DNA from: Psammoneis japonica
Taxonomy: Eukaryota
Assembly (NCBI GenBank): GCA_008632985.1
Contig: QPGO01000056.1
Coordinates: 338,406 to 402,405 of the forward strand
Direction of reading: 5' to 3'
DNA length: 64,000 nt
In this document: one piece after another, positions 9,232-64,000 of the stretch
How positions within the stretch are numbered: position 1 is the stretch's first letter
Layout: every line of letters starts with the position of its first letter
Made by a program: the position numbers and the translations under genes
The notes under the pieces: model-generated
The model's input: the letters and a program-made list of their open reading frames with translations, nothing else
The model's database searches: none
Told to the model about the DNA's origin: nothing

Positions 9232-9262
<31 letters not shown>

Positions 9263-17655: not shown

Positions 17656-18039
17656 ATGAATGCTCCAGAACGGTCAGCTTCCTTTCTCTTAGACGAGGAC
17701 AGCGGCGAAGTCAAAATTACCTACACTCCCGACACCAAGGTGAGCAACGCCGGCATGTTTACTCTCAACAAGGAAGACCACACTGTGGGCAATTTGCTTC
17801 GCATGCAGCTACTGCGAGATCCCAATGTCCGCTTTGCCGGCTACGTTCATCCACATCCCTTGGTGCATTACCTCGACATGAAGATTCAAACCACGTCGAG
17901 TACCGTCACGCCCGTCGAAGTGCTGTCGGCGGCGATTGAAGACTTGAGCAACGAAACCGATCATTTAATTACCCAAGTGTCGGATGCTGTGGATCAATGG
18001 AGAAAAGAGCATGATTCCGGAGTCATGGGGACATTTTGA
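17656..18039 (+). CDS. RPB11: DNA-directed RNA polymerase II subunit RPB11
   Basis: MNAPER..F..NKEDHTVGNLLRMQLLRDPNVRFAGYVHPHPL is the RPB11 signature. 127 aa, intact. Confidence 0.97.
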   Translation: MNAPERSASFLLDEDSGEVKITYTPDTKVSNAGMFTLNKEDHTVGNLLRMQLLRDPNVRFAGYVHPHPLVHYLDMKIQTTSSTVTPVEVLSAAIEDLSNETDHLITQVSDAVDQWRKEHDSGVMGTF

Positions 18040-28786: not shown

Positions 28787-28899
28787 TTGTACGGTAGGAA
28801 CCTGCTGTATGGGGATGGGGCGGGCCATGCTGGAGATGCTGGAGATAACGTACGGCGGGGTGACTGACCTCTGCTGGAGAAGCGACGTGAAAAAAGCAT

Positions 28900-41566: not shown

Positions 41567-41945
41567 TGCAACATGCGTTGTCATGTACGTATTATATATG
41601 TATATCTATATATTAAATAAAAGTGTGTTTCAATCGTACGTCAATCGTGGGTTCGTACGAAGTACAGATCAGTCACACAGAAGTGATTGGATGTCGAGAA
41701 TCGCAAATGCGATCGTACGATGATGTTGACATCTTATGTGTCAATGTCAATCGTATCCGGACAATCTGTCGTCACGATCATATTCTCCGAAAGGCCTTTT
41801 GTCTGTAGGAGCAGTACAAAAGGTTTAGGCCATTGAGAATCCGTTCGGAGAAACCCAAAATGATTGAGTAGAAATGATTCTCATAATTTTCACTTTTTGA
41901 ACTTCATTCTACTTTCGTTTACACTCGTTCTTCGAGCATAGTGCA
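41567..41945 (+). repeat. 5' LTR
   Basis: 371/379 identical to the 3' LTR by manual alignment, TG...CA ends. Confidence 0.97.
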
Positions 41946-41981
41946 TTGTGTATACACACCACAGAAGGTAATAAGTTCAAG

Positions 41982-43136
41982 ATGAAGCTTTCACCTCATG
42001 CAACCAACGCCAAAACTTCGTCAAGGCAGGAGAAAATCGTCCCTCAACCGCTGGAATCGAACTCCGAGCCGAAGAGCCTCAAACCGAGCCAGTGCCTCAA
42101 GATGGAGCAACGTTTTCATCCCGAGAAGAAGGATAGCCGTACCTACACCATCAATGTTGAGCACTACAAGAAACAAGGTGTCCCCAAGTTCATCGAATTT
42201 CTCAAGAGCTACGATCAACTTCCAGTGGGCCAGAATGTCAGGAAGCAATCTGATGAGTTTCGTCTCATGCGTGTGTTACTCCAAGGAGACGCCCTGCGTG
42301 CTTTCGAGAATGCGGCAGCGAACCTTGAAGACGAATCTGCGGAAGGAAGCTTCGAGAAATGCCTGCAACATCTCACGAGGCATGTGTTTCCCAAGAATGC
42401 CCTTTCGGTGCAGAAACGTCATTTGCGTCGTGATCTCAAGAAGCCGGAGTCCATGAAAGTACGCGAAATTGCTGCTTGGGTCCAGGAAGTCAACGAAGAC
42501 CTCAAGTTCTATCCTCCCTTTGGGAAGGAACAGAAGATCAAGGACGACGAGCTCAAGGACATCCTCTTCAACCTTGCACCTCGAAAGTGGCAGCGTCAGT
42601 CGACCGTCCAGGGTTTCGAAATTTTGAAACATGCCTGTGACGAGCTGGTTGAGTTCTTGGAGCGCCTAGAGGTCGCAGAAGACACATTTGATGGCATTCA
42701 TGCCAAGGCTGATGGCAGTGGCGGCACTGCATCAAAAGCCAAGAGTGGTTCCCAACGTGGTTCCAAAAATGGTCACCAACATGGTGCCGAAAAATCTCAG
42801 TCCGAGAAGTGGTGCATTTCATGCGAGAAATCCACTCATAACACGGACAAGTGCTGGTCGATCAAAAGACTTGCGAAAGAACGCTGTGGGAACTATGAAC
42901 CCGACCCGAAACGGCGCCGTTCAAATGGCAATCGCACGTGGTCTCGTCGCGACAACGACAACGCCACTCGCAAAGAAGAGTTGAATGCCATGGCGATCCA
43001 AGCAGTTCAAAAAATGCTCAAAGCGAGTTCTTCGAACAATGACAAAAAACACAAGAGCAAAGATTGTGATTCTGATGCCCTTGACGAGGAAAATTGTCAG
43101 TTTGAAAAAATGACGCGCAGTGATTCCGAGGAATGA
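41982..43136 (+). CDS. gag: Gag with CCHC zinc knuckle
   Basis: Open frame with CISCEKSTHNTDKC (C-x2-C-x4-H-x4-C). Confidence 0.88.
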   Translation: MKLSPHATNAKTSSRQEKIVPQPLESNSEPKSLKPSQCLKMEQRFHPEKKDSRTYTINVEHYKKQGVPKFIEFLKSYDQLPVGQNVRKQSDEFRLMRVLLQGDALRAFENAAANLEDESAEGSFEKCLQHLTRHVFPKNALSVQKRHLRRDLKKPESMKVREIAAWVQEVNEDLKFYPPFGKEQKIKDDELKDILFNLAPRKWQRQSTVQGFEILKHACDELVEFLERLEVAEDTFDGIHAKADGSGGTASKAKSGSQRGSKNGHQHGAEKSQSEKWCISCEKSTHNTDKCWSIKRLAKERCGNYEPDPKRRRSNGNRTWSRRDNDNATRKEELNAMAIQAVQKMLKASSSNNDKKHKSKDCDSDALDEENCQFEKMTRSDSEE

Positions 43137-46100
43137 CTTGCACCGCAAGAGGAGTCTTGCGCTCTGCTGGACATTAGGAAGCCCAGGAAAAGGGCCAAAG
43201 TAATTCACACTAGTCCAGTGGTCGTCGCCTGCATGAACACTTCATTGGGCAAGGCGAAAAATAAGCCTCTGCGCGTTCTCCTCGATGGCGGAACATTGTC
43301 AACCATAATTTTGCGCAAATTCACGCGGAAACTCAGAACAAAAGCATCCGCCACCAAACTCTGGGAAACCAAAGGAGGGCTCTTCACGACTGACAGTCGA
43401 TGTAAGATCCAATTCTCCTCACCCGAATTTGACAAACACAAGATGATTGAAACAACGGCATGTGTTGACAACTCCCCTTCTTCTTCGAGTCGTTATGACA
43501 TGATCATGGGATGCGACTTAATGTCAAGTCTTGGGATGGTGTTGGACTTCTCGAATGAAGAAATTAAGTGGGAAGATGCAACTGCTCCTGTGAAGAATGT
43601 TGATGCACTCTTCGATGCCGATGTTTTTAAGTTGATTGCCGATCACATTGAGGAATCTCATGCAGTGATTGGTCTCAATGACAGGGTCAATCGGATCCTT
43701 GACTCAGACTGTCATGCTGCAAACCTCAATAATGTGACCGCAGCAGCTGCTCATCTAACTCCTGAAGAGCAGAAGCAGCTGAACTTCCTCTTAAAAAGAT
43801 TTGAAAACCTTTTCGATGGTTCTCCAGGCAAATGGACCGGGAAACCGGTGGATTTAAAGTTGAAATCGGGCGTGAGTCCGCATCATGCCAAACCATTTCC
43901 CGTGCCACAAGCCTTGGAGGCGACTGCTCGTAAGGAGGTTGAAAGACTGTGCAAGTTGAAAGTCTCAAGAAAAACAAATTGTTCTGAATGGGCGGCTCCA
44001 ACCTTTGTTCAACCCAAGAAAAATGGCAGAGTTCGGTTCTCATCCGACTTTCGAGAGCCAAACAAGAGGTTAATTCGTACTCCGTTTCCTCTGCCCAACA
44101 TTCAGGACATGCTACAGAAGCTTGAAGGCTTCATGCATGCAACGTCCCTGGATTTAAACATGGGATGCTGTCACATCGAATTGACGCCGCGTGCACGTCG
44201 CTTGTGCACGATCGTCATGCCTTGGGGCAAATGTGAGTGCTGTAGACTCCCCATGGGAATTTGTGGAGCTCCAGATATTTTCCAAGAGCACATGAGTGAG
44301 CTCATGGCAGGTCTGGAGTTCGTCAGAACTTGTGTTGACGACACATTGTGTCTTGCAAAAAGTGATTTTCAAGACCACCTCAAGAAGCTTGAAACGGTGT
44401 TCTTACGCCTAGAACAAGCCGGATTGAAGGTCAACGCCGAGAAGTCCTTTTTCGCTAAAACCGAAGTAGACTATCTAGGCTTTCATGTCACCCGCAAGGG
44501 CATCAGCCCGATTCCAAAAAAAGCAGAAGCGATTTGCGCGATCGCAACTCCTAAAACTCGCAAGGAATTGCGACGCTTTATCGGTATGATCAACTATTAT
44601 CGAGACATGTGGCCTCGACGATCTCATGTTTTAGCTCCTTTAGCCAAACTCACTTCTACCCAAGTAAAGTGGCAATGGACCGAAACAGAACAAAAAGCCT
44701 TCGAAAATATGAAGCGCATCATCTCCAAAGATATACTATTATCATACCCGAATTTTAATATACCCTTTGAGATATATACCGATGCTAGTAAATCTCAATT
44801 GGGGGCGGTTATTACTCAGAAAAACCGACCAATTGCCTTCTACAGCCGCAAGCTGAATGGAGCGCAGACGCGTTATACTACAACGGAAAAAGAGCTATTG
44901 TCCATAGTGGAGACGTTAAAAGAGTTCCGAAATATACTGTTTGGCCAACAGATAAATATATATACGGATCACAAAAATCTCACACACAAAAATTTCACAA
45001 CGGACAGAGTCATGCGTTGGCGTCTAATAATAGAAGAATACAGTCCCGAAATAATATACCTTGAGGGCAAGGCAAATATTGTCGCAGACGCGATTAGCCG
45101 ACTTACTATGAAGAAAATAGAACCTATGGAAACCCTCAGCACAGAAGAGCTAGCTGAAAAGGTCCTACCAAAATCCTACGACAATGTCTTCCGTTAAATT
45201 ACAAAGTTCTTGATTATGAACAAAAACGGGATAAAGACATTCTCTCCCAATTGTCAAATAAGACGTTTCATACGAAGACTTTTCGTGGAGGCGAGCGAGA
45301 CCGGTTGCTCATATGTCATAAGGATAAAATTGTCGTCCCGAGGACGTTACAAAAGGCAGTGATAGATTGGTATCATACATACCTTCTTCACCCTGGCATA
45401 AATCGAACAGAAGAAACAATCTCACAACACCTATGGTGGTCCACCTTACGTGAAGACATACGAAAATACGTGTCGAGATGTGAGACGTGCCAAAAATTCA
45501 AAAAGAAACACAAGAAATATGGACATTTACCTCCTAAGTGCGCAGAATCCGTACCATGGGAACGACTATGTGTGGACCTTATTGGGCCATACAAAATACG
45601 TCGTAAGGGAAAGAAAAAACCCCTAGTCCTGAAATGTTTAACTATGATCGATCCAGCAACCGGATGGTTTGAAGTTGTGGAAATCCCAAATAAGGAGTCC
45701 ATAACTGTAGCTGGACTATTAGAACGAACATGGCTAAGTAGATATCCTTGGCCATCGTTAATTACATATGACCGTGGAAGTGAGTTCATCGGACACCAAT
45801 TTAGAGAAATGGTGCAAGATGATTATGGCATTAAAGTCAAGCCTATAACTACACGAAATCCACAAGCAAACGCAATTATTGAACGCGTACATCAAGTACT
45901 GGGGAACATGCTCCGTACATTTGATTTGCAACATACACCTCTAGATACTGAGGATCCTTTCGCTGGAATACTATCAGCAGTAGCATTTGCGGTACGTTCT
46001 ACGTATCATACCACTACGCAAGCTACACCAGGACAACTAGTCTTCAATAGAGACATGATATTTAACGTCCAACATGTCGCGGACTGGAAATTAATCCAGC

Positions 46101-46336
46101 AGCGAAAACAAGAAATCATAAATAAAAATAACGCTCGAGAGAATGCTCGACGTACTCCTTACACGTACAGAGTAGGAGAAAAGATACTACTCGAGAAAGA
46201 CTCGCAAAAATTAGAACAGCCCTATGTTGGACCGTATGTAATAACAACGGTACATACTAATGGCACAGTACAGATCAAACGCGGTAACGTTATTGACACT
46301 GTCAATATTCGTCGAATAATACCGTTTAACGACTGA
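43137..46336 (+). pseudogene. pol: Pol (protease, RT, RNaseH, integrase), RT inactivated, frameshift near 45190
   Basis: VLLDGG protease, LDLNMGCCH / RLPMG / CVDD RT, YTDAS..EKELL..YTDH RNaseH, HHCC plus D,D,E integrase (VDLIGP, YDRGSEF, IERVH). Confidence 0.93.
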
Positions 46337-46362
46337 CTCTAATGTGCAATTAGGGAGGCGAA

Positions 46363-46741
46363 TGCAATATGCGTTGTCATGTACGTATTATATATGTATA
46401 TCTATATATTAAATAAAAGTATATTTCAATCGTACGTCAATCGTGGGTTCGTACGAAGTACAGATCAGTCACACAGAAGTGATTGCATGTCGAGAATCGC
46501 AAATGCGATCGTACGATGATGTTGACATCTTATGTGTCAATATCAATCGTATCCGGACAATCTGTCGTCACGATCATATTCTCCGAAAGGCCTTTTGTCT
46601 GTAGGAGCAGTACAAAAGGTTTAGGCTATTGAGAATCCGTTCGGAGAAACCCAAAATGATTGAGCAGAAATAATTCTCATAATTTTCACTTTTTGAACTT
46701 CATTCTACTTTCGTTTACACTCGTTCTTCGAGCATAGTGCA
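46363..46741 (+). repeat. 3' LTR
   Basis: Matches the 5' LTR and follows the PPT. Confidence 0.97.
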
Positions 46742-49700
46742 TTCCCTCTCAATCGTCATGACACAGAACAAACATCCTCCAGTTTGATGACATGCATTGG
46801 CTGCAAACCTGCAGAACCACCATGGGCACTGGCACAGCATGCATGTGCACAACGCTGTGCAAGGCCCTTCATGAATGCCAAGTGCTGCAAACCTGCTTCG
46901 CCACCAACCTGCAACACTGTGGCTGGTTCATCAACAACATCTTGGGGACATGGACCAGAAACTCTGACTCAATGTGGACAGAATTCAAAACAGAAATGAA
47001 CAACTCTGGCCCCCTTGAATGGGAAACTTTGCTGCTCTCCAATGCAGCCATGTTCCAGGATTTAGAAATCCAAATAGGAGCCAATGGCAGGATCATCACT
47101 CGTGTGCATCAAAAGCCCGTGAATCTCTTTCTGTGCATGCCACCAACATCAGCTCATGCACCCGGAGTGCTGAAGAGTGTCACATGTGGAAATTTGCGAT
47201 GGTTCTGGCTGCAAAATTCAGATGCACATGACTTTGTAAAAGTTGCAAAAAACTTTGCAGACCATCTCGCTGACCAAGGACACGATTGGGACATGCTGCG
47301 TGAGCCATTTGTGGAAGCCGCCAACCATCTCAACAACCCCTGTCAGCACTCCCGCTCCAACAACACCGCAGACCCAAGCTCTGCCCTGTTCTTCCACAGT
47401 GAATTTCACCCCCGTGGGGCACCTCATGCCTCTGTTTGACGGGCCTGTGAAGACACATTGGATGGGTGCAATGGTTTCAAGCATTTTGTGCTTGCTTGCT
47501 TGTGACCTCAAAACTTGAGAGACGCTTCAATGCAAACTCAAATGCAAGAACCAGAGGGCAAGCGTGCATCCAACTACATCAAGCAACTGGAGCTGGAGCT
47601 CTGAGTTGGTGACTCCATCGTGATGACACACCTCCGGCAAAAAACTCTGGGCTGCCTTCCATTCCTGTGGTGCTTCGGCTTGTGCCCATTGGAGTTTTTT
47701 TTGGGGTTGCACCAAACCCAAACCCCATTTTTTACATGCAGTTGATCTGTTCTTTTCATTCTTTAGCAGGCATTCAAAACACACCATTGAGAACGCCAAT
47801 GCCCACTTTTTCTCCACTGGAGTTTTGGGCCAAAGACATGCGTGCTTCGTGCACATTGGCACTTTCAATGGTCGCATCTGAGCTGTGACAGCAACAACCA
47901 TTAAAAACAGCCGATGTTGATCTTTTTGGCTCATGAGAAAACATGTCAACCATGCTGATGAAGCAAAAGCAAAAGCTCACATCATTGAGCTTTGCAGGTT
48001 TGGCAAGACCAACCCAAAGTCTTGTCAGTGCCAAAGGCACTCTCTGCACATTCAAGAACCCCAGCAGCAAAATGAGAGCAGAGGCCGGAAAACCCAAGTG
48101 GTTCGTGCATGTTCAACAGAATCGGTGATCTCATCTTGCGGATTGCTTGAGGCCAGTGGGCAAAAAATGTGCTGCAGGGCCCGAACGGCACTCACTCGTG
48201 CAGCCTCCTGCTGCCCCCATGTTGTGTGTCTTGCACCTCCCACACCTCTCATTGGGCTCTTAAAATCTTTAGAGTTAAAATCATGAATGTGTTGTTGGTG
48301 TGGAATGGACAAGTGGCTTTTAAAACTGTGGTGTCAGACGCCGCTGATGAGGGTGGGATCAAGAGCATCGCTTTCTCGGAATGTGGTGCTTTGTGTTGTC
48401 CCACAATGAGAATGTTGGTGAGCAATTGCGTGCAACAGAGGTCAACTTCCTTGATGTTCCTGCTCAAATCTGCCCTCTGCCAGATGCACATTCACCAACC
48501 TGGCCCAAGTTCCAAAAATTGGATTCTCTCAAGTCTCTCGAGCAATGCTGGTGATTTTGGCCAAACACCCATTTGCACTTGTTTGTCACAGCCCTGCTTC
48601 CAGCTGCCACTTTCAAGGTTCAGAGGCAGGTGTCAAACTCAAAGCACTGTGGCACTCTGGCTGTCTTCTCTATGATGCAAAACAGTGTGCACATGTGTGT
48701 TGTGGGCTGGAACTTTTTTCAATTGCTGAGGTGGTGCAAACAGCCTTTGGAAGTTTGTTGGGCCTTGTTCTGGCAAATGAATCTTGAATCTTGCCTTGTG
48801 ACTGGCATCTCTGCAGCTGATGATTGGCCAGAAAATGTCAAAGAGCTGCATGTTCATCAATTGACCCAATGACAATGATGAGTTGACAGTTTGCTGCTGG
48901 GGGTGGGGGTGTTGCTGCACCAAGCATCTGGACTTTCCCACATGGCCAGAGTCTCAACTGAGTGCTGGCACCAGCAGAGGGTGACAGAATGCCAAAAGGC
49001 AACAAGGACAATGCCATGGCTGACTCCCCAAGCACCAGGGCTGTGATGATGTGAGCACTGGCGAAAGAGAATGAGAGGTCATCACCTGCACTCTGTCTGT
49101 TTGTCACACGATGGGTGGACTGGCACCCTCCCCTGATCTGCAATGTCGAAATGTAGAAAACAATGCAGGTCAACCAAAACAACAGGGGTCATGCATGAAA
49201 ATTGATTGGATGACAAAACAAAGTGTCCAGGCTCAACTCACAATTGCAAAGAAACCACACAAAGCAATGACATCTCCAAAAGACTCCAATGGCTGCAGGG
49301 TGCATGTGCTGATCCATTCAAAAAAATCAAAAGCAGCTTCAAACAAGTCTTGTGCAAAAGTTGAGTCTCAATCCAAAGACCAAAGAATGGCTCTGTCAAT
49401 CAACAAATGATTGAAGGCAAAGGGGCATTCTGGTGAGCCACAATGTTGCTGAATCTCATCCAGCAAAATGGGGCAGGATGGAAATTCACCATGGTGTGTG
49501 GTGTGGCAAAAATGAGGTGGAAGCAACCCGCTGGACAAAGCAGCACCTCGGTCACATTTTGCTTTGCCCCCAAAAAACACAATGGACAGAAAAAAATGCA
49601 TCACAAAAGTTTTTGGCATTTGGAAGAACATGTGCGCGCGGCATCTGAGGATGGCAGGATGTGCAAATCTTGGCCACCAAATGTGGCATCTTGAGAGAAT

Positions 49701-49977
49701 CTTGAATGCTCAACAGCCTTGCATGCTCCCACTGTGCTGCAGGGATCCCTCCCCTGTTCACAAAACACAGGGTCATTGTTGGCAACAGTTGACAGGTCCA
49801 GAACACCAGGAAAAATGCTGTTTGACACCACAGCGGTCCTGTCAGTGAACAAAAAGGTGTTGTGGCAGAAGGTGACAAGTTTTGGTGACCTTCTTTCAGG
49901 GGCATCCAACTTCTTCCATTGAACCTGTTGGCTTCCTCTTCACTGCATTTGACCCTTCCCTGATCAGAAAGTGCAAG

Positions 49978-50424
49978 TGCAACACACAGCTGCCAACGAG
50001 AGTCAATGCATCACGGCGACGTGTCACAGCCTTCAAATGTCACAAAGGGCGTGACAAAAATGACCTTTTGTCTGCATGCATGCTGCACCATGAATTCACA
50101 GCGGAGTGGTTCATCGCAACCATCAGGCAGGAGGCCAGGGGTTCGAAACCCTGAGTGGGAGTTGTCTGCAGCAACGTTGATCACTGTCGAACGCGTGAAA
50201 CTCTGTGCAGTTCTGTGTGTTCCTTCGCACGCACCCACGCTGTTCCGCCAAAACCGTGCAGTGTCAGCACACGTCAGTAAAGAGCCGCATGGATGCGTGA
50301 TGCATGGGGAGGAGTGCAATGTGCAGCCACCAATGAGAGCCAATGTGTCACAGCGACGTGTCACAGCCTTTAAATGTCACAAAGGGCATGACAAAAACAA
50401 CCTTTTGTCTGCACGCATGCTGCA
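49978..50424 (+). mobile_element. TRIM (miniature LTR element, 447 bp) with 110-bp LTRs
   Basis: LTRs at 49978-50087 and 50315-50424 (TG..CA), PPT ggggaggag at 50306-50314, 4-bp TSD CAAG on both sides. Confidence 0.9.
50092..50160 (+). ncRNA. tRNA-like module (A box, D-arm, B box/T-arm) inside the TRIM; not a complete tRNA
   Basis: CAGCGGAGTGGTT (A-box-like), GCGG/TCGC D-stem, CAGGGGTTCGAAACCCTG T-arm. The anticodon arm is short and unpaired. Confidence 0.6.
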
Positions 50425-53400
50425 CAAGGTCGCCATCAGCAGTGGAGGCCAACAGCAGGCCAACAGCAGGGTTCTTGAAGGGGCAAGATGGCAGGGCAGG
50501 AGGCAACGACATGCAGAGCAAGATCAACACCACTGGAGAAAACCACACACTGGCAATGTTGCTCTGCACTCTGCATCCCAGGAAAGCTCACCAGACAAAT
50601 GGGGTGCGACAACCTGAGGGGACTCAATGTTGAAAGAAGGTGGATGCTTGGCAGGTCCACAGTCTGCCAAGGTTGCCTGGGCTCTTTAAATCTTTCCCTG
50701 GCATGTTTTAAAGCATGTTGGAAGGTTTCTAAAGCCACACCAGGCCAGCTGCATTGTGGCGGTCTTGTGGCTCCTGGAGTTGTGAGCCTTTGCTTTTGCC
50801 AAACTGAGCTTGGTTTTTTGTCATTGTCCACCCTGTCTCCAATGGCTGGCGCCCCAGTGGCCCCAAATTTGGGACCTTTTCTCTGTCTTTCAACTCTCTT
50901 GTGACCCAGCTTTCAACTCATCCACCAGGGACTCACAGCTGAAAATGTTCAGACACACTGCTTCCCACTGATTTTTGACATTTTTCAGGGTGCACGCGTG
51001 CACACAGAATGGGTGTTGCTGGGTGCAGCAATGAGTCCTCAGGGTGTTGCTGGGTGCAGCAATGAGTCCTCAAGCAATGCTGAAAGGGCAAACTCTTCCA
51101 ATGTGGCATGTGAATGTTGTCCACTTTAGATCTGTGTAAAAAATGTTTTGGAGTGCAACAACAGATGGGCAAACATTGCCACACAAAATCATGACAATCA
51201 GGTTGGCTGCAGCACAGCAAACATTTTGTTTGACATTCCAGTCAACAAAGGTCATCATTTTTGGAAATCTCAGTTGATGCCATCACAGCAAGCATCACAT
51301 CAAGCTTTGTTCTGCCAGCAGCAGTGGCAGTGGCAGATTGTTGAGTTCAAAAGCTGTCTGTTTTGGTTGGCTTTTGCAAGATTTCAATGTGAAGCATTTG
51401 TCCTGTCATTTTGTGGTGTTCACCCTGTGCATGGCAACAAGCTCTTGCACAGATTTGTGCTGGAGCTTGTGTGCATCCTGACAAACTCATGAGCCCTTGT
51501 TGCCACCTGCACTCCTCACCAAAGCTTCGCTGCCTGCTGCTCTTGCTTTGGCAGCACTTCCCCTCTTGCAGCTTTGGCACGGGTCTCTCATGCACCAATG
51601 TGCACTCAGTTGCTCTCCTCCCTGCTGCACTTGTCCAATTCTTTAACTTGCAAGGCTTTGACAAATTGCCAATGCATGAGATTTGTGCAATGTGGGTCAT
51701 CAATGACCACAAGCTGTGAATTGGAGCAGCTTTGAACTTGTTTGTGCATTCCCTGGTCATCTGCCACATGTCAGCCCACTGCTTCTCCCCACACTTCCTC
51801 AGCTTTTTTTGTTCATGAGGATCAGGGTTGGGGTCAGTGCCAGGGCCAGGGCCGCATTGTCCCAAACTGTTTCTGAACAAGCTGGTCATCACTGCCCTCA
51901 TTGGGGCCAACCAGCTGATGAAAAGCTGAAAAATCTGGCTCAACAGTGGCTCCCTTGAGCTTGCAGACTTTCATGAGGATGCGCCCATTTCAGGCTTTCT
52001 GCAACATGTCACAAAATCTGGCTGCACTTGCTGAGGCTGGTGCCTGCCAGATGCCAGATGCAGCCATGGGCCGCAGCTGCTCCAGCACCTGGTTGCTCAA
52101 TTCAAGAACACAACAATGTGACAAGTTCATGGCTCAGCTCAGAAAATTGGTTGAGTGCTCCAGAGATCATTTTTTGTTGTTTGCAAAGCAATTGTGGGGC
52201 ACTTGGGCACTGCAGCCATGCAACAAAAGACATCTTTCATGACCCCAAGATTGCCTCATCTGTTGCTCATGTTGTTGCATGCAACAATGTTGGCATTGCA
52301 ACAATCTAAAATCACCAACAGCAGGGCACCCAAAACTTGTGGGAACACAAGTTCAATGGGTCACAGCAGCTCAGAGAGACTGCCCACTCTGGAAGAGCCA
52401 GTGCAGAGTGCCCACGCATTTTGCTTGCCATGGGTCAAAAACCAACACACTGAGGATCATCTGCCTTTGAGCTTCTGCTCATTTTGCCCTGTGCAGTGTC
52501 CAGGGGGGCGGGCACCAGCAGGTCATGCGCACCTGTCAGGGAAGGCAAAAACAGAAACCACAGATGGGTGTGAGCCACAAGGCTGGCAGTTGAGGTTGGG
52601 GCTCAATGCTCCAACATGGGAACCCTTGTTGCTGTCATCAACATGCCCAGACCTCTCCAATGACAGCAGCACACCATTTTTTTTGGCAATCTTGACAGCA
52701 GCCAATGCAGGCTGTGCATTGCAGCTGGCTTCTAAAGCTCCAAAACCTCCACCTCACTTGACAAAGTGGTCATGCAGTGGCCACGCTTGTGCCCTCTTTT
52801 CTCTTGCCCCACATCTCTCTCAAAAGGTCAGAAAAACCTTGCATGTGGCAGACAATGCAGTGCAAAGCAATGGCATGAGGGAGGCAGTTGAGTGAACAAA
52901 CACATGTTTCTCATGTCAAAAAAGAGCACTTTGCAACAAGTGGGTGGAGAGCTGTTGCCTGCCACCTGCCATTGCCAGCTGTTTTTTGATGGCTTGCATG
53001 CATGAGCTGGTTGCAGCAGTGCTGCACTGACTCCTCTTTTTGTCTCACCCTCACATGCCCTGTGCATCTTTGTGTGAAAATGCCAGCTGAAAAGTCAACG
53101 AAGTTGTGCAGCACTTTGCCACACAGACAAGTGCAAAAATGAAAAAGTGTTGAGCCTGCAAGTTTGAGCCCAGCCCCTTTCCAAACAAACCAAAATGAGC
53201 AAATGCCAAACATGGCACACCAGCAAATGAAAAACTTTTGAACAAACAAAAAGCAAAGACATGCTGCTCCCTGGGGATCTGCTGTGTTTTTCAAGCTGCT
53301 TGTTTGGTGCAGAATGGGTGTTGCAATGTGTGGCACAGAATTTGTGCTGCAATGTGCAGCAATGAGCTCCCAAGTGATGTTGGTGCCACAAACCCTGCCA

Positions 53401-54329
53401 TTGCAGCATGCAAATGCTGTCCATTTTGGACATCTGTGTCAAAACAAAAAAGTTTTGGCATGCAAAAAATTTTGCCATCAACACAGCACAAGAGTTTCTC
53501 AAAGATCACAACAACTGGCTCAGCTGCAGGATCAGAGGCCACAATGTGGTGGTTTCCACTTTCCTCTGCAAATTTTTTGACGTGCATTGTCAACATTGTC
53601 AACAAGCAAAATTTGAAAACTGCCGGCAACAGTGCTCAACAGATTGCAGTTGTTTTTTGTGTTTCATCTGATGTCTCATTGGCTTTTCTTGCACAAGCTT
53701 CAATCAAATGCGTGCAATGTTCAACTCAATTGGAGTTGACATCTGTGTTTTGTGATGCACAGTTTGGTTTCCTTTTGATGATCATCAACCTGAACTTGGT
53801 TTCCACTTTGGTCCTCCTCAACTCACGTGCATGTGTTTGCACGTGTGCAGTCTGCTTCATGCACACACATGACCCACCCTCCATTTAAATTCCTCTTCAT
53901 GCTTCGCAGATTTTTGCGGCCCCTTGGTGCACCGTGTTTTCAGTGTTTTTTCACATGCACAATTTTCTGCACACTTCACAATGGTGCACCCTCTCCCCAA
54001 AAATCAAAAAGCAAGAGCATGTGCTGTTGTGATTGACGTGGATTCTATGTTTGGTCACAAATCTGCAAATCGACAACCGGCCATGGTGGTGAAAGACTTC
54101 ACCCCATTGGCCGATGACAGCAGCTCAATGCATGGTGAAACCTGCTGTCCTTCTGGTTGGTCAAGACAGGTTTTGATTTGGGAACAGCTTGAGTTTTGTG
54201 ATCATGAGTGTGCTGTCATGAATCTGCTGCATCCAGAATGCTGAGCTGCTGGTGTGTTGTTGTGTGCATGGTTGTTGTGTGCATGCACGTCACAAACTTG
54301 CTTTTCTGCAGCATTGGGACAATCGCGCG

Positions 54330-54915
54330 TGTCAGAGTTTTGCATCCAGAATCATCACAAGTCACCACAAATGACACTCTTCAAACAAAAGGCATGCACA
54401 AAAAGAGGTTCATTGGTTTTTGATGCACTCGCTGACAGTGCATCTGTCTTCTCCAATTTCTGTGTCCAGATCAAGAAAGACTGCAGGTGGTGCTTGTTCC
54501 TGCAGCTCTCAGAATCACACGCATGAAAAGTTCTTTGCCACATGTGACACTCCTCAAAAAAGGCATGCACAAAAGAGCTTCATTGGTTTTTGATGCATTC
54601 ACTTGTGTCACGTCCATCTTCTCCAATTTTTGTCCAGATCCAGAAAGACTGCAGAGGCAGAGAGTGGGGGGGCAACCCATTGGAGGTTGCCTGAGTTGTT
54701 GAGCTCATTTTTAAAGGCTTCCCAAGTCTCTCTGCTGTTTCTGGTCCATGCTCTAAATGTGCCATTGATGAACCATTCACAGCACAGGTGTGGGGTGAAC
54801 TCAGTCATTGCCATGTGACTTTGTCGTTTGTGCTGCACCTTGCACAGTGTGGTGCACATGCAGGCAATGCTTGTTCCCACAGCCATTCCAGCAAGTGCAT
54901 TCTGTGGCACTCAAA
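54330..54915 (-). mobile_element. Second Penelope-like RT fragment with an internal duplication of about 170 bp
   Basis: MAVGTSIACMCTTLCK..WFING..WTRNS..W..FKNELNNSG.L.W aligns to ORF 46792..47439. About 54345-54486 is repeated at about 54508-54654. Confidence 0.8.
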
Positions 54916-55018
54916 ATGTTTTTTGCTTGCTCACATGCTTTCTTTCTGTGTTTTCTTTGAGTTGCAGGGGTGGAGCTGGGTGCTCAACGTCTTGCACCTT
55001 GCACCGGTGTCCACATTG

Positions 55019-55510
55019 CTCCAGAATCAGTGGCACCAGATGAACCGATGCACCGGCAAGTGTGTGCTGCCATTCATGCCAGCTCATCTGTGTTGTGCTC
55101 TCACAATGTGCTCTGTGCTTTTTGGCAACAAACAAGGTGGATCACAGCAACAGCACTTCTGCTGCAAACTCACCTGCTCCAGAATCAGCAGCAACAGATG
55201 CACTGGCAAGTCCATGTTGCCGTTCCTGTGGGTCATGTTGGTTCATCTGTGCCACACTCTCACAACATGTTCCACTCTTTTTGGCAATGAATGAGGTGGA
55301 ATGGAGCAGCGGCACTTCAAATCATGGAACAGCAGCTCCTGCTACAAACTCACCTGTTCCAGAATCAGTGGTGCTGGATGCACCGGCAAGTCCATGTTGC
55401 CATTCATGTTGGTGGTGTTGGTTCATCCACGCTGCACTCTCACAACACATTTTGCACTTTTTTGGCAATGAACAAGGAAGGTGGCTGCCAGCAGCGGCAC
55501 TTCAAGAAAG
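55019..55510. repeat. Three tandem units of about 160-180 bp
   Basis: tccagaatcag..gatgcac(c/t)ggcaagt..ctctcacaa..tttttggcaa recurs at about 55020, 55178 and 55358. Confidence 0.85.
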
Positions 55511-58500
55511 CAAGCTGCAACTGCTGCTGCAAACTCTGGGGTGTTGTCTCCATCAGCATCATTCAATTAAAATGCAAACAACAAAACGGAATGTTTGTGG
55601 TGCAGTGCAAATGATTTTAATTTACAGAATTCGCAGGGACAGAGGGTGGGCACTTTCATGGGGAAAACGTGTCCCTGTTTCACAGTGAAACATGTTTTCC
55701 TCATGGGGAGGGGGGGTCTGATCCCACAGCACAAAAATGTTCATCTGTCACAGTTGACATGTTGTTGCCAGCTGCACAACTGTCAAGGTTTGAAACAATG
55801 GAATTTTGCCTTAGATTTAAAAAAATGACTGTGAGAAAGGTGGTCTGGATCACCACAATGCGTGTGCTCTGATGCGCCAGCAACAAATGTTGTTGCTCAT
55901 TGTTGAGGCCAACCAGTTGCTGTTGTTGGAGCTCAGTTGATGCTGTTGCAATGAGCATCACACCACACCTTGTTCCTCAAGAGCAGATCTTCTGAATTCA
56001 AAACCCACCTGTCTTCCATTTGCCAAAACTTTGCACACCTTGGAAATCCAGCAAGTTGCTGGCATTTGTGAGATGTCAACATTGTCTTGCCAAAAGCCAG
56101 GCCTTCCTTCATGAAACCCAGCACAAAGTTTGTCTGTGATTGCACCATGCATGGCAGCAGGCTCTGATGCAGATTTGTGCCAGAGCTTGTGCATCCTGAC
56201 AGACTCACAAACCTTTCCTGCTCTCAGCACCTCACCACAGCCTTGCTGCGTGTCATTTGCCCCAAGCACTTTCTTTTTTCTGCAACTGTCATCAACATCA
56301 TGAGTGTTGTCATGAAGAAACACACACACAAAATGACCTTGAGCCACTTGTCTGTTGCAAAGCACCACCAAGAAACCCAGCTGATCTGAAGCCAGAAAGC
56401 AGAGGAGCAAGATTGAGCAACACACCCAAACAGCCATTGGAGCAACCCTGAGACAGATCTCTTCTTTTGGATTCCTTGTCTTTTAGATTCCTTGGGCCAA
56501 AAGCAGAAAGCATGCTGCAAGTGCATTGAAAAAAATGTGTGATGAGGGGGTGCCATTTTTGTTGTTGTTGGACATTCTGAAGAAAGGTGTTTGCTCTTTC
56601 TTGGACAAACCAGGGTGTGATTTGTCAGTGGTGCTGACCTGAGCAGCAGGCATTTGCCACACCAATGTTTCAATCTGTCTGGATGGAGAGTGCAGACCAC
56701 CAACAGAGGGGAACTTGTGGCCCACCCTCTTTTCCATTGTGTGGAAAGTGATGCTGGAAAGTGACATGGCAGACCTGACTTGGGCTGTGGCTGGCATGCC
56801 TTTCACAGACAAGTGCTTTGTCCAGCATCTGAAAATTCTTTCTTTCCAAATTTGTTTGCAAACACATCAAGTGTGTGAAGTGACAGGTTGACACATGGCA
56901 GATGATGACCAGGGAAGGTGTGAACAGATGCAAAGCTGCTCTGGTTCGCACAGCTTGTCATCCATGACTTGCGCCACACAGACTTCATGAGCTGGCAGTT
57001 TGCCAAAGCCTTGCAAGTCAAAAATTGGGTGAGTTTGACAGTGGGAGAGTGGCAAAGTGCGTGTGGACATGCAAGAGACTTGCATCAAAGTTTTCCTCCT
57101 CCTCCTTCTCTGAGCCATCTTCAGAGGCCCAAAGCTGCGCCTTTCCAACCAACAAACCCCACAGATCACCAGCACTTTGGGCAATGTCATGGGCCCCAAG
57201 TGACAACCTCCCTGAAATGCCATGGCCTGCATTGGGTCAGATGCAGAAAGAAAAAACATTCATCAGGTGGGGAAGATGCAACAGGGGGGCAACTCACCAT
57301 GCTGGTGACAAAGCTGCAGCATTTGTTGTTTCCATTTGCAGACTGCTTGACCAACCCAGTCAACTTGAAGCTGTTGAAAACTGTCCACAGCAAACAACCA
57401 TCCAGCTGCTGCTTCTTTCCCAACTGTTTCCTGACAAGCTGCCAAGCTGTTCATTGCCATTCTTGTTGGGGCAAATTTTCCAACAAAATGCTAAAAATTC
57501 TGACTCAAAGTGGCCGCTGCACTTGCAGACTTTGGTGTCACCAAGTGCGCACCACGATTTCCCATGAAACCCATTTCAGCTTTTCAAGAACATGTGGCAG
57601 ATGACAGCACAACAAATCTGGGGCCATGCTCATGGAGACTGGCATCTGCCAGACAGTTAAAAGCTGTTCTTCTGGCACCTGGTTGCTTCACTCAATGACA
57701 TGTGACAAGTTTCACCAGCCCAGCTCAGAAAATTGATTTGAAGATTTTTGTTCTTGTTCCACAATTGAAAATTGTGGGGCACTCAGATGGCACAATTCCA
57801 AGATTGTTCCAGCTGTCACTCATGTCATCACATGCAATGATTTTGGTGCAGCAACAATCTTGGGTGTCCAGCAGCAGCAGGAGAGTTGCTGACCACTGGG
57901 CTTGGACAAAAAAACTCATGGAAATGCTTTTCAAGGGTTGCAGTGGCTCAGTGGGGAGACAATCCACAATGGATCAAAAATGAATGTGCCAAGGATGTGT
58001 TTTACAGACAAGCTCAAAGCTTCCTTCCTTTCTCTTGTGAGTTTCACCTTCACCTCCAATGCTGTGCAAAAGTGGGCCTCTGTTCTGGATGTGCTGGGCA
58101 GTGGCCAGGGCACCAGCAAATCAGGAATGCCTGCTGGGGGGAGCAAAAAAGGGAGCCAAACAAGTGGCAGCTGCAAGGCAGTTGAAGTTGAAGCTCCGTG
58201 CTCCAATGTGAAGATTTGTGCTGCCATCAATGCCAGAAGACCACATGCACACACACACTGGATCTCTCAAAACAGCGCTGTTTTCTTGGCAACCTTGGTG
58301 GCAGTCAATGCTGGCTCCTGGCTGCATTGCAGCTGGCTTTTGAAGCTCTGAGACCTCTGCTCAATTGGCAAGGTTGTGTTTGAGCAGACAAAGACACTGC
58401 ACTTTCTTTTGTGTGTGCACCTGCCAACTGTGCTCTTGATCAAATGGTTGTTTGTGCCCTCCTTTTATCTCTCTTGCACTGTCTCCTCCCTCAGAGAGTG

Positions 58501-59169
58501 CAGGGTTGGAAGAACCTTGCACAGCAGATGTCACAATGTTGGGCGACAATGCAAAACAGGCAGCAAAAAAAAGCACATTTCTCATGTCAAAAGGAGCCCT
58601 CCGTGACAAGCAGGTGGAGCTGCTGCTGTGCCATCTGCCACTGTGTTGACTCATCCATGCCAGTGGTGTGGAGTGTGGATGAGCAGGTTGCAACTGCACT
58701 GGAGGCTTCTTTCTTGACAACCATCATCACACACCAAGCCCAAACCATGCCCTGTGCACTCTTGCATGAAAGTGCCAGTTGAAAAGTCAACAAAGTTGTG
58801 CTGCACTTTGCAGCACAGTGTGCCAGAGAAACAAGGGCAGTCAATTTGAGATTGAATCTTGTCAACCCCCCCACCCCTGTCACAACAACCCCCAAGAGAG
58901 TGTCAATGCTCAAGCACACAAACAAAAACTTTCATGTTTCCTGCGCATTTTTTTTGTGCTTCCTGCATGTTTTTTGGGTGCCGGTCTGAGACACATCTCT
59001 GCAGAGCTTTGCACCTCAGCCAGCCAAAAGTCTGCAAGGCACCAGCATCAACCAGTGGTCATTGTGTTAAAATTGATTGTCGGCCCCACCAAAAGCAAAG
59101 AAAAAAAGCAATGAAACATGAAATGTGCCCATGTGTTGCTTGTTGCATGTGCGTGCTGTGCTGCGGTGG

Positions 59170-61200
59170 TTGATCATCTGTGTGTCCTCCTGTCTGTGTG
59201 GTGGTTCCGTTGCCGCACGCTGCAACAGAGCAAGTCGTCCATCCGCACATGTGGAATGCGATGCAACACTCCGAGTGATGAAGCAACACATCTGATGAAC
59301 CTCCCGACTTTGACCACTCTTCCCATGTTCACTCCACTCAAATTGCCGCAAATGTCAATGATCTTCACACTGCCTGTGCCCGGGTCACTTCCTCCCTTCC
59401 TGTTGCATCTCTCACTCCCAAATGCATGGAGCTCATCAAACAGCTCTGTCCACCATGCAAACACCTGCCCCTGTCTGCTGCACCATCTGCCTGACACCAC
59501 CAATCCACCCCCACCCCCCTGCACTTCACCACCGATGACCTCCAAAAAGCACTGGCCAAATGTCAGCCAGGCAAAGCACCTGGAGCGCCTTTGCTGATTC
59601 TGCTGACCTTCTCAAGGCCTGTGCTCTCCACTGCTGCTCTACGTCAACATCCTCTTCACACTCCCACCGGCTTGCTTTCAAATGCCTGCTTGACCTCATC
59701 CTCACAGCAGATCTTCCCACTTCCATCAAACCTGCCTTCTCACCCAACTGTTTCCTTGCCCTGCACAAGGGCTCATCCAACCTTTCCAAACTTTGAACAG
59801 TCGGCATTGGCACAGCTCTGCAGAGAATCAACTGCACCCTTGTTGTGTGTCTCCTTGCTGCCACCTTCGCTGCCAACCTCCTCCTCTCTGGCCAATTTGG
59901 CATTGGTGCCAAAGGCAGCCTCAACTGCCTCATGGACACCACTTGCACCAATGTTGAATGCTTCTTTGAACCAGACTCCGCACCTGCAAAAGCTCTCCTC
60001 CTTCTCAACCTTTCTAATTGTTTCAACGAATGCTCTCGCGACACTTGCCACGACACCCTTGCAACCTCTGATGAATGCCGTGCCATCGTGCCCTTTTTTA
60101 ACCTGCTTCACCAAGACCCCAACACTTGCTGGTGTCAAGACCATCAACTGCAATGGGCCTCCTTTTCTCAACCTGAGGGATTCACCCAAGGCTGCCCCCT
60201 CAGCCCTGCTTTCTCCTGCCTCATTCTCACCCGTGCATTCACCCCCATCAACGATGAGTCACATCACCAGCTTTCTCCCCAATCCAAGTCTGCTGCTTCA
60301 TCACACATTGATGACACCCATGTCTTCCTCCCCTTTTCCCAGCTCCCCTGGTTTCTCAAATGGCTTTCCACCTGCGGCCCCCAATTTGGCATCAAGCTCA
60401 ACACTTCCAAAACAAAAATTCTCACATCTGCCACCGGCACTCCCCCCATCAACCGCCTCCCACCCACCAATGCCAAGGCTCTCTCCAAAGCCCTCACCTT
60501 CCTCAACCCCAACAACGACTCACACATCAAGCCCAAAATCACCACGGGCATCTGCTTCCTTGGCCAACCCATTGGCTCATTCGTCTTTGCCATGAACTTC
60601 CCACATGACAAAGCCACCTCTTTTTGCCACAGACCTTCATCAACTCACAACCCATCTCACCGACAAGCAAACACAAAGTGCCCTCTTCCGCAAATGTTCT
60701 GTCCCTTCCATTGCCCACCTCCTGTCAGCTGATGCATGCTGCAACCTCATGCACTCCAGTGACCTTCTGCCCCCTTTCCAATGGACATCTCCCTTCACCA
60801 ACAAGATCAGCGGCCACTCCCTGTGCTTCCCATCCCACCTCACCCAACACACCAACCCTTTCCCTTCTGCTGCCAAGCTCATTGCTGGCCTCCCCATTGC
60901 TTTGGGTGGCATTGGCCATCCCAACATCTCCGCTGTCGCCACCCCAGCTCTCACAACCTCCCTCACCAGATCCATCTGACACACCAAACATGGCATCCCA
61001 CTCACCGGTGGCAATGTTTTCCATCTCCCTTCAAGCCACTCTGCCACTCTTGGTTCATGGTCCAACCCATGTTCCACCCTTTCCCTCTGTTGCATTTTCT
61101 GCTGCTGTGCCCCCTGCCCTTCTCCGATTTGACTCTCCTCTTCCTTCACCTGACCAGAGACAACCAGCTTGTTCACAGCAGAGTCACAACTTGAGACAAA
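59170..61200 (+). mobile_element. Non-LTR retrotransposon (CRE/SLACS-like RT), decayed
   Basis: LALHK..KL*TVGIGTALQR, QFGIG, NLSNCFN, EGFTQGCPLSP, SHIDD, GIKLNTSKT. C-rich sense strand. Confidence 0.85.
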
Positions 61201-64000
61201 TTTGTTGCACTGGCATCATCACTTGCTTGCTTGCATGTTGCTGGTTTCTTGATTGACCTTGGCCTTGTCAATGGCCCACTCAGCCTCATGAGCAGAAGAG
61301 CAGTGGGCTTGTGCACATCTCAGAGTCTGGCCTGGGCTGAACATCTTGTTCTCCACAGCTTCAAAGCACCTTTCCCAGAGCAAGGCACAAGCCTTGATCA
61401 ACATGCTCTCATGGGTTTTGGTCTTGAGCTGCTCATTTTGCCTGTCATGTGCTGGTCTTCAAACTGGGCTTGTTGACATTCACGTCACATGGAGCAAGAG
61501 TCTTCAACCCTGCCTGCGCCAATGTCATTGCCATGCTCAAAGGCCTTTTTGATGTGATTGACAATGAACTCAGTGGCAACCTCACAGCCTGCATGCTGGC
61601 TGCCACCCAAGAGCACAGCTGGCAAACAGGGTCACTGCAGGTGCTCTTCTTGGTGTGCTTGACCTGCATCTCCTCTTCAAGGAACACCTTCCTTGGCTTC
61701 TGTTTGCTGTTTCTGCCTCTCCTTCTCATGATGGTTTGGCAAAGCAGGACAAATCTCTTTAGCTCCACAAGGCAAATCTCTTGTGCTTTTGGCCTGCTTT
61801 GCAGTGCTCAGAATTGTGCTGCTGGGTCCTTGCTCTGTTTTGGCTACAGAAATTGCCCCTTCTTCTTGTGGCCATTGTCAAGCCACTTTCAGTGATGAGG
61901 CCATTCCTGAGGGGAAAACAGGCAACATTGCAAATGCACGTGCTTCACAAGAGTTAAAAGGGAATTGTGTTGCTGCTTCCTTGAGCAGTTTGAGTTCATG
62001 TGTGGTTCTTGGACAAACACATCAGAGTGCAACGTGATGAGCATGTTCTAAAAAGTCTGTCTCTCAGTGCGTTTGAAGCACAAAATCTCACATTGAACAT
62101 TTCAGTGAAATTCGATGCCAACAATGACAGCAAAAGATGGCTCCTGAGGACTTCTAATTTGCAGACTGCAACACAACCAACACCTTGTGTCAACTCCTTT
62201 GTGCTGTCCACAAGTGATGACAAAAGAAGCTTGCCACCAACCAGCTGTGTGATTGCTCACTGCCCTCTTGTTTCCTTTTCTCTTCAGGAGAGAGTTTTTT
62301 TTTGGCCAGCTGTCTGGGTCAATGAAGTGGTGAGATGCCATGCTTGTCATCACTTTGATCTGGCCCACTGTGAAAGAAAGCAAGCTGTCCTTTTGCTCCA
62401 ATTCGCAGCAGACCCTCACATGCTCTCTGCCCAATGATGCCAGGAGACAGTTGACAAAGTGGTTGACAGATCCACAGATGAGATGTGCTTGCAGCAATTT
62501 GGGTTTGCAGACGAACCATGAGCAAAGTCAGAGGAGGATCTCCAGAGCTGACCTCTCAAAGATCATGCAGAAATGTGCAGAATTCAGCACTTGAAGTGAT
62601 CAGAAACCAAGCCCTTCACACATGTGACAAGTCATCGGAAAGACTCATTGCAAGCATGAGCATTGTGAAAAGACTTGGGGAATTCGGAGAAACATTCTGA
62701 AGAACTCTGAGGAACATGGAACATGGACAGGACACAAACATGGACAGACACACATGCCCGTGGCACTCTCTTGCACACAAGAACTCACAGTGGATCAATG
62801 GACCTCTTTTGCAGGCCATTTGTTTGACCAGAACATGATCCAGATTGTTGGGGGAGACACCATCTGACCACTTTTGCAAGCAAAGCAGTTTGGAAGTGGT
62901 GTCAAAAAAGTTGTTGGTCACTCTTGTGGAGTGCTTGGATTGTCTCCTGAGGCAATTGCAGACTCTAAGATGAGCTCAGTTGGTGCAGGAGAAAGAGCCA
63001 GTCACAGAGAAAGCACCACCTGAAGTCACAAAAACTGATGCAAAAGAAGGAGTGGGGTCAACTCCTGGAGCAGAGGACTCTCCGATGGCACGAGTCACAG
63101 TGCCGCAGGTCCTCTCAATTGCCCCAGCCGCATGTGTGTGCAAATCAGGAAGCCAGCGCATGTTGTCTGCTGCCAACTCCTGGCAATGGACTTTCACAGA
63201 TGACCCCAGAGCAACCATTGCCCGCTGGTCCTGTTGGTGTTGGCAGCTGTGATGTGCTGACACAAGCAAGCTCTTGCACAGTCTGGAGTCACCAGCAATC
63301 TCCTGTGTCCTGGTGTGCACTGCGGCATTTCACAGCCCCTTCTTTTTCCTTCAACCAGCAGTTGTTCGATGGGAAGCATTCCTTGCAAGGGCTGCAATGA
63401 ATGCCGCAGGAATGCTGACCAGTGCTCTTGACCAGCAACAAAGTGATTTGTCAGGGTGGCAGCACCGCCCAGCCCTTCTGTGCACTTGTCACCACCGCTG
63501 GGACCAGCAGCTGGGTTGAGTTGCACAATGCATGGGCATGACGGGACTTGCCCAAATGCAGGTTCCACTTGAGGAGACTCCAAATCTCAAGAAGAACGAA
63601 GACCCACTTTGGCAAGGCGGCAAGTTTGCTGCATTGTCAAGATTGCGTTGTCTTTGAGGTGGGGCTCATGACTGCACATTGTTTTGCCTTTTGTTGCAAA
63701 TGTCATCACTGCAGTGCAGCAAAACAATGGGGAGCCCTCTCCACTTGTCCAGCCTGGGGTTCGGGTTCAGCACCCGGCTGTTCTCTTTTGACTGGATGCT
63801 TCCACCGTGTGTGCTTGACCATCAGGAACAGCAGAGTCCCATCACTTGCTCACCATGTCGTGCAACACAGACAATGTCAAGTGGCACTTTTGCTTGACAA
63901 CCTTTGGCTCAGGGAGAGAAATGCATGTGGCAGCAATCCCGTCATGCCAAGTTCTTTCCTTGGTGGACCACCTGGTGGGATGCGGGGGATGCATCCAGGG

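Follow-up and report, generated by a model that had tools for sequence, protein, structure and literature searches.

Layout of the window

The window is a 64,000-nucleotide stretch of DNA from Psammoneis japonica (GenBank assembly GCA_008632985.1, contig QPGO01000056.1, positions 338,406 to 402,405 of the forward strand), read here in its own coordinates. Its G+C content is ~48%, and it is eukaryotic, with intron-poor genes. The window holds multi-kilobase blocks that have lost nearly all of their TpA dinucleotides, and our results show that these TA-poor blocks, probably transposable-element (TE) relics, were rewritten by hypermutation at the DNA level. The few TpA left in them are concentrated where pyrimidine (Y) precedes and purine (R) follows, that is, in YTAR. 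The genes, the blocks and the gypsy elements to which the analysis refers are these (o/e, observed/expected ratio; LTR, long terminal repeat):

1-690, minus strand: older gypsy copy of the same family as the intact element below, 5' LTR and element start, partly hypermutated
1400-4360, no strand: B1, TpA-poor block with 7 TpA left and CpG o/e ~0.7-0.84
8332-10713, minus strand: gene for a PH-START protein (domain scan)
10960-17450, no strand: B2, hypermutated block with 22 TpA left
17644-18036, plus strand: gene for an Rpb11-like subunit (domain scan)
21982-23655, minus strand: CDC20 gene (domain scan)
28860-32500, no strand: B3, hypermutated block with 8 TpA left, 8/8 of them YTAR
36960-41560, no strand: B4, hypermutated block with 20 TpA left, adjoining the other side of the intact element
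41567-46743, plus strand: intact Ty3/gypsy LTR retrotransposon with reverse transcriptase (RT), RNase H and integrase, normal in TpA, between B4 and B5
41567-41947, plus strand: its 5' LTR, 381 bp, differing from the 3' LTR at 8 positions
46363-46743, plus strand: its 3' LTR, 381 bp, paired with the 5' LTR
46744-64000, no strand: B5, hypermutated block, probably TE-derived, with 48 TpA, continuing past the window end

The top named relatives of the CDC20 and PH-START proteins were all diatoms (Cylindrotheca, Nitzschia, Fistulifera, Seminavis and Pseudo-nitzschia), with a bolidophyte, an oomycete and brown algae ranking lower. The best database identity was 48% for CDC20 and 39% for the PH-START protein over the aligned domains, and no near-identical protein was found.

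Replacement of TpA by TpG and CpA

In 1-kb windows, TpA o/e was 0.00-0.13 in B2-B5 compared to 0.35-0.9 in the genes, and the o/e of CpA+TpG was 1.6-2.0 in the blocks compared to ~1.0-1.3 in the genes. Over its 17,257 bp, B5 retained 48 TpA (o/e 0.00-0.11 per kb), with CpG o/e of ~0.05-0.4 and CpA+TpG o/e of 1.6-2.0; from position 47001 onward, 17 consecutive 1-kb windows had TpA o/e ≤0.11 and CpA+TpG o/e ≥1.62. Three other multi-kilobase blocks were depleted and enriched in the same manner. Overall, ~92% of TA was lost from the blocks, and the depletion is near saturation (TpA o/e ~0.03, CpA/TpG ~1.9).

Mutated and unmutated DNA hardly differed in their density of pyrimidine-purine (YR) steps per bp (0.2408 vs 0.2414). 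This indicates that TA and CG became CA or TG by transition and were not deleted. The ratio CA/(CA+TG) lay between 0.47 and 0.57 in each block, and this balance indicates that both strands were hit. Locally, the CA share of CA+TG reached 0.68 at 40001-41000 and 0.67 at 60001-61000, where GC skew is strongly negative.

Contigs of one public sequencing run, aligned to 41948-52000, differed from the window at 1465 positions, 1273 of them by transitions (A>G 367, T>C 352, C>T 265, G>A 289). At some positions that read TG or CA in the window, among them 50217, 50228, 50232, 50288 and 50751, other copies of the high-copy repeat at 49676-50683 in that run still have TA.

The TA-poor blocks also carry long open reading frames (ORFs) in overlapping frames on both strands, such as 2279-4520 and 59495-60729, which have no family matches. 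Long ORFs are numerous in the blocks because TAA and TAG stops were erased, and such false ORFs would mislead gene finders.

Contexts of the surviving TpA

Each TpA was assigned to YTAR, to RTAY or to a mixed class (RTAR or YTAY). The mutated set comprised B2-B5 (31,990 bp) and the unmutated reference 26,980 bp of genes, spacers and the intact element. The preliminary description had stated that surviving TpA in B5 are mostly YTAR, and had quoted examples; these are present at 48261, 48270, 48276, 55812 and 55818, as TTTAAA at 50371, 50687, 50709, 53886 and 54712, and as TCTAAA at 50730, 52307 and 52733. The statement held for B5, where the 48 survivors comprised 33 YTAR, 15 mixed and no RTAY, and for B2-B5 together, with 60 YTAR, 37 mixed and a single RTAY among 98. 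The 1045 TpA of unmutated DNA comprised 179 YTAR, 553 mixed and 313 RTAY. The YTAR excess of B2-B5 over unmutated DNA gave Fisher p = 5.5e-20, and the three-class comparison chi2 = 114.6, p = 1.3e-25. By block, the YTAR share was 8/8 in B3, 12/20 in B4, 18/27 in B5a and 15/21 in B5b (each p < 3e-5); in B1 it was 3/7 (p = 0.1).

Composition was corrected for by means of the purine/pyrimidine skeleton, which transitions cannot change, taking the TA share of YR steps in each flank class. In mutated DNA this share was 3.4% for Y-YR-R, 0.9% for the mixed class and 0.05% for R-YR-Y, as opposed to 12%, 16% and 20%, respectively, in unmutated DNA. The pattern recurred in B5 alone and in B2-B4 alone. 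Comparison of the NTAN classes between mutated and unmutated DNA, which had been proposed as a check, rejected uniform survival (G = 141.2, df 9, p = 5.8e-26). The counts, survivors in B2-B5 followed by the unmutated baseline, were:

TTAA: 27 survivors, baseline 50
CTAA/TTAG: 27 survivors, baseline 88
CTAG: 6 survivors, baseline 41
GTAA/TTAC: 14 survivors, baseline 129
ATAA/TTAT: 11 survivors, baseline 162
CTAC/GTAG: 9 survivors, baseline 147
ATAG/CTAT: 3 survivors, baseline 115
ATAT: 1 survivor, baseline 91
ATAC/GTAT: 0 survivors, baseline 133
GTAC: 0 survivors, baseline 89

ATAT and TTAA have the same composition, yet their survival (1/91 vs 27/50) differed ~50-fold (p = 5.6e-10), which points to base-specific recognition rather than duplex stability. 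TAAA or TTTA lay on at least one side of 62 of the 98 survivors (10 of them TTTAAA), compared to 158 of the 1045 baseline TpA.

The base 3' of the adenine and the mutated strand

A model in which the two strands are hit independently, and in which the base 3' of the A alone determines the probability for each strand (four +1 parameters), fitted all ten NTAN classes (G = 6.69, df 6, p = 0.35). Per-strand survival was 0.70 for TAA, 0.37 for TAG, 0.11 for TAC and 0.07 for TAT. Read as two rates, T-A-Y mutated ~3.5 times faster than T-A-R, and the preference is graded. CpA was not attacked, so the -1 base is strictly T.

The wider context was assessed within the blocks, by setting the TA that survive against the full set of YR steps there, with unmutated DNA as calibration. 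The effect was strongest at +1 (p = 9e-27), followed by +2 (p = 2e-18) and +3 (p = 2e-8), and was not significant at +4 (p = 0.22). A was protective at both +1 and +2, and TTTAAA was the most protected site; at +2, C, G and T were all more mutable than A, with no preference for G. YTAR is thus shorthand for protection by T-tracts and A-tracts.

The mutated strand can be read from sites whose two strands differ in context. At R-YR-R steps, the CA share was 0.59-0.63 in each of the five blocks compared to 0.54 in unmutated DNA. B1 served as the strand test, as CpG is intact there and does not confound the count. In B1, the missing RTAR amounted to 0.148 of the steps, and RCAR had gained 0.147 while RTGR had gained 0.006. 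The lost RTAR therefore reappears as RCAR, which indicates that mutation falls on the T-A-Y strand. A T-A-Y target preference had been suggested at the outset from the surviving contexts; those contexts, the RTAR to RCAR products and the older gypsy copy described below all bear it out.

The LTR pair, the older gypsy copy and the order of TpA and CpG loss

The two LTRs of the intact element differ by seven transitions and one transversion, and all seven transitions are TA versus TG or CA. TA positions make up 17% of the LTR (7/7 transitions there, p ~ 5e-6); counted by position, there were 7 changes in 132 TA positions and 1 in 630 others (p = 2.8e-5). No change was seen at the 22 CpG of each LTR. 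Since LTRs are identical at insertion, their differences at TpA indicate that the process acts on integrated DNA, and change at TA with none at CpG indicates that it outpaces CpG decay.

In the older copy at 1-690, 13 of the 27 TA of the intact copy are now TG or CA and 8 are kept, while CG is kept at 18 of 26. RTAY sites were mutated in 10 cases and kept in 1, compared to 3 mutated and 7 kept in other contexts (p = 0.0075).

In B1, TpA is gone and CpG is kept, which shows that TpA loss is separable from CpG decay and faster. CpG o/e in B2-B5 was ~0.05-0.5, and CpG survival varied only from 0.19 to 0.28 over the flank classes, indicating little context dependence. Our results suggest that TpA hypermutation came early and fast and that CpG decay followed. 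The co-depletion of CpG in B2-B5 is consistent with the decay of methylated cytosine in silenced repeats.

Transposable-element content of the blocks and repeats of the window

The signs of a TE origin for the blocks, faint within the blocks themselves, are an RVT_1 remnant, a weak Mutator match, a high-copy repeat and the older gypsy copy with its partial mutation. In addition to the gypsy copy already listed, they lie at:

13552-14502, minus strand: weak Mutator-like transposase remnant inside B2 (E = 3.7e-4, under the Pfam cut-off)
49676-50683, no strand: high-copy repeat inside B5, by word depth in public-run contigs
59797-60729, plus strand: degraded reverse-transcriptase remnant inside B5 (RVT_1, E = 6e-7, 29.8 bits vs a cut-off of 29.6)

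However, at E ≤ 0.01, 88 of the 92 block ORFs had no match in Pfam. Comparison of the window with itself gave 15 repeat pairs, almost none of which link different blocks. When metagenome contigs were scanned with the RT/RNase H protein of the element, 33 pattern stretches matched and none was confirmed as a relative. Unmutated DNA contains an inverted duplicate of ~1.1 kb (19140-20206 vs 5100-6186, 82.8% identity), neither copy of which has a Pfam match.

The gypsy family is large and includes young and decayed copies, and yet the copy at 41567-46743 is nearly unmutated. Public-run contigs matching the intact element number 5928, in identity classes of 876, 1434, 2104 and 1514, and the summed word depth of the family is ~100 times that of unique flanks, a depth that is not a copy number. 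No matching target-site duplication was evident on inspection of the ends of the intact element by eye. Its gag side (42201-43300) has 11 TpA in 1.1 kb, with a normal 68 CpG, a composition that is either native or the product of partial mutation.

Summed contig word depth over 49676-50683 reached ~86,000 compared to ~60 in near-unique neighbours, and this segment may be a SINE-like (short interspersed nuclear element) high-copy repeat. By impression only, there is a tRNA-like T-arm motif near 50140; ARAGORN called no tRNA gene, including at that motif.

Proposed mechanism and alternatives

We consider it reasonably probable that the blocks are TE relics rewritten by a sequence-specific enzyme acting on chromosomal DNA, which would convert TpA to TpG or CpA by a rule set by the 3' base and would most probably be an adenine deaminase. 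The data show that A:T has been changed to G:C at TpA on either strand of the integrated copy, giving TpG or CpA. How likely a hit is depends on what lies 3' of the A, with T or C making it most mutable, G intermediate and A least, and a second A at +2 adds protection. TpA therefore persists mainly where both strands read T-A-A/G, namely in YTAR and above all in TTTAAA. CpG decay is a separate and slower process. The agent would be a sequence-specific enzyme working on the chromosomal DNA of silenced or foreign-looking regions, and deamination of A to inosine, read as G, seems its most probable activity, by analogy with the proposal made for the chlorarachniophyte Bigelowiella natans.

Several observations weigh against this interpretation. 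The YTAR excess was weak in B2 (7/22, p = 0.086). The two-rate model predicts 4.4 RTAY survivors and 1 was seen (Poisson p = 0.07), a shortfall that probably reflects a dose that was heterogeneous between blocks. The LTR changes show no TAY excess: the preliminary description counted five of seven in TAY and took this as support for a TadA-like context, and the count is correct, but 50 of the 66 TA half-sites of the LTR (76%) are TAY to begin with (binomial p = 0.77), and we dropped the argument for that reason. The polarised data are few, as only three mixed-context changes occurred in the older copy, two in the predicted direction and one opposite. Among the best 40 of 1475 variant rows, which were selected by support, nine are TA versus TG or CA, six of them TAY and three TAR. 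The strand and survival figures assume that the blocks began with the TA contexts of the present unmutated DNA, and a part of the TA now present may have arisen later. As to the enzyme, a scan of 146 ORFs of the window (15 + 92 + 39) turned up no deaminase domain. A-to-G in T-A-Y is formally T-to-C in R-T-A, which thymine-directed chemistry would fit equally. Finally, according to the available part of the source, the A-to-I editors known from eukaryotes favour a +1 purine (PMC9600606).

The alternative that fares best, although we regard it as unlikely, takes thymine as the target. A T-modifying activity at R-T-A, for example TET/JBP-type oxidation to 5-hydroxymethyluracil (5hmU), would give a base that mispairs with G and yields T-to-C. 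Every result above is symmetric in this respect, as T-A-Y is R-T-A on the opposite strand, so that the sequence offers no direct argument against it, and the DNA of dinoflagellates carries 5hmU preferentially at TpA. Against this, we know of no 5hmU-type modification in diatoms, and the sole published account of the signature, in the part available, argues for deamination of A (bioRxiv 10.64898/2026.01.13.699255).

Less probable again is that the YTAR bias marks where new TpA arise after saturation, for example by C-to-T at T-C-A or its complement T-G-A. Some TA must indeed be supplied by back-mutation, as CA and TG make up 7200 of the 7703 YR steps in the blocks, and the expected products, TTAA and TTAG/CTAA, are the commonest survivors. 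But this leaves unexplained the asymmetry of the products (RTAR to RCAR and not RTGR, in 5/5 blocks) and the older copy, in which RTAY was mutated at 10 of 11 sites and other contexts at 3 of 10. Furthermore, CTAG cannot be made from T-C-A, and it survives ~45 times better than RTAY (6/41 vs 1/313).

We think it very improbable that the changes were made on RNA or cDNA, by ADAR- or ADAT-like editing of transcripts that was then fixed by reverse transcription and integration; this explanation is already largely refuted. The blocks do contain retroelement remnants, and in the accounts available A-to-I editing of RNA typically has U in front of its target A. However, the LTRs of one insertion diverged by seven TpA transitions, both strands are equally hit (CA:TG balanced), and a +1 purine is protective here while ADAR and fungal ADAT favour it according to the available part of one source (PMC9600606). 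In the available part of the B. natans account, moreover, viral DNA integrated as a single copy acquires mutations while the cells grow clonally. That the blocks were never hypermutated, and are foreign or selected DNA poor in TA and CG from the start, is scarcely credible: the lack of a Pfam match for 88 of 92 block ORFs would suit it, but YR-step density is unchanged, same-family copies differ by TA versus TG or CA, and loss of TAA and TAG stops accounts for the overlapping long ORFs.

A wider extension of the deaminase interpretation, which we hold only tentatively, is an A-directed, mirror-image counterpart of fungal repeat-induced point mutation (RIP) serving as a defence in a diatom-like stramenopile and in B. 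natans, with T-A-(T/C)-(not A) as its target, TTTAAA immune and a lineage-specific deaminase as its agent. That target rule and that immunity are unlike ADAT2/3 and ADAR, which points to a different, lineage-specific deaminase. As a candidate example, CDD/CDA-like deaminases with tudor arrays that are restricted to stramenopiles were predicted by Iyer et al. 2011 (PMC3239186, in the part available). If true, the defence would be either old within the SAR (stramenopiles, alveolates and Rhizaria) supergroup or evolved more than once.

Comparison with known systems

The blocks resemble the products of fungal RIP in that repeated or foreign DNA has undergone dinucleotide-specific transition hypermutation in sharply bounded blocks that adjoin intact genes. 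The direction is opposite: RIP converts CpA to TpA and enriches TpA, whereas here TpA is destroyed and CpA/TpG are enriched, and the values of ~0.03 for TpA o/e and ~1.9 for CpA/TpG exclude RIP itself. As the highly repeated intact element is almost unmutated, repetition alone does not trigger rapid saturation. APOBEC3 likewise inactivates retroelements by context-dependent hypermutation and is a deaminase, as is proposed here. APOBEC3 works before integration, deaminating C on a single cDNA strand, and leaves strand-asymmetric G-to-A changes; the process described here differs in affecting A:T pairs, on both strands, after integration.

To our knowledge, hardly any enzyme in nature is known to deaminate adenine in chromosomal DNA, and adenine base editors (ABEs) had to be obtained by laboratory evolution of a tRNA enzyme. 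The native tRNA site of TadA is UACG. A TadA/ADAT-like mechanism had been suggested in the preliminary description, and this suggestion finds only partial support. As with TadA and the editors derived from it, T/U precedes the A and a pyrimidine (C) can follow: set against the U/T-A-C(-G) context, the -1 base is strictly T and T-A-C is readily mutated, with survival of 0.11 for C at +1. Unlike UACG or YAC, a T at +1 lets the A mutate as readily as a C does, or more so (survival 0.07), and G at +2 is not preferred, so the match is loose. The YAC preference is that of the A48E variant of ABE8e as given in the available part of a review (PMC13109818).

The -1 preference also resembles that of fungal Tad2/Tad3 (strong U at -1) and of ADAR (against G at -1), in so far as the accessible sources describe them. 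Beyond tRNA, editing by eukaryotic ADAT2/3 has been studied in a single case, that of mRNA in the sexual stage of Fusarium; there, G or A is preferred at +1, and editing is weakened or lost when C takes that position. With ADAR, too, G and A are slightly over-represented at +1 (PMC9600606, available part). Those enzymes act on RNA and favour a +1 purine, whereas here both strands of integrated DNA are affected and a +1 purine protects. ADAR or ADAT editing of RNA fixed by retrotransposition was rejected as a candidate on the CA:TG balance, the divergence of the LTRs at TA and the protective +1 purine.

The closest parallel is B. natans, for which Mettrop et al. propose an ADAT2-like DNA adenine deaminase (bioRxiv 10.64898/2026.01.13.699255; the comparison refers to the part of this preprint available to us). 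In two integrated viral regions of B. natans mutation-accumulation lines, 230 of 231 mutations were A>G or T>C, and all 230 fell on TpA. As in the blocks described here, A:T to G:C transitions are confined to TpA, yield TpG or CpA and occur in integrated DNA. In B. natans that DNA stems from nucleocytoplasmic large DNA viruses (NCLDV) and virophages, with enrichment for transposon and viral remnants; a transposon origin is probable for the blocks. The two differ in lineage, as B. natans is a rhizarian and the genes of the window are diatom-like, and in extent, as TpA o/e is ~0.03 here, near saturation, compared to 0.45 in the NCLDV region of B. natans. The words trinucleotide, tetranucleotide, flank, context and CpG are all absent from the main text of the preprint, so that the neighbour-base rule, the strand assignment and the co-decay of CpG are undescribed in that text. 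In the literature searched, this 2026 chlorarachniophyte preprint was the only account of a transposon-silencing, TpA-directed mutator, and titles and abstracts yielded no report of TpA hypermutation in diatoms.

The phenomenon is thus of a kind described once, very recently, and what is added here is a new lineage and a newly defined target rule. A near-saturated signature in a diatom-like genome widens the known range and suggests that ecologically dominant algae possess a genome defence missed by annotation pipelines. The rule provides a testable biochemical fingerprint, as a candidate enzyme must convert T-A-T and T-A-C, convert T-A-G less and spare T-A-A-A, and its +1-base component offers a simple test of whether the diatom-like lineage and B. 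natans share a mechanism.

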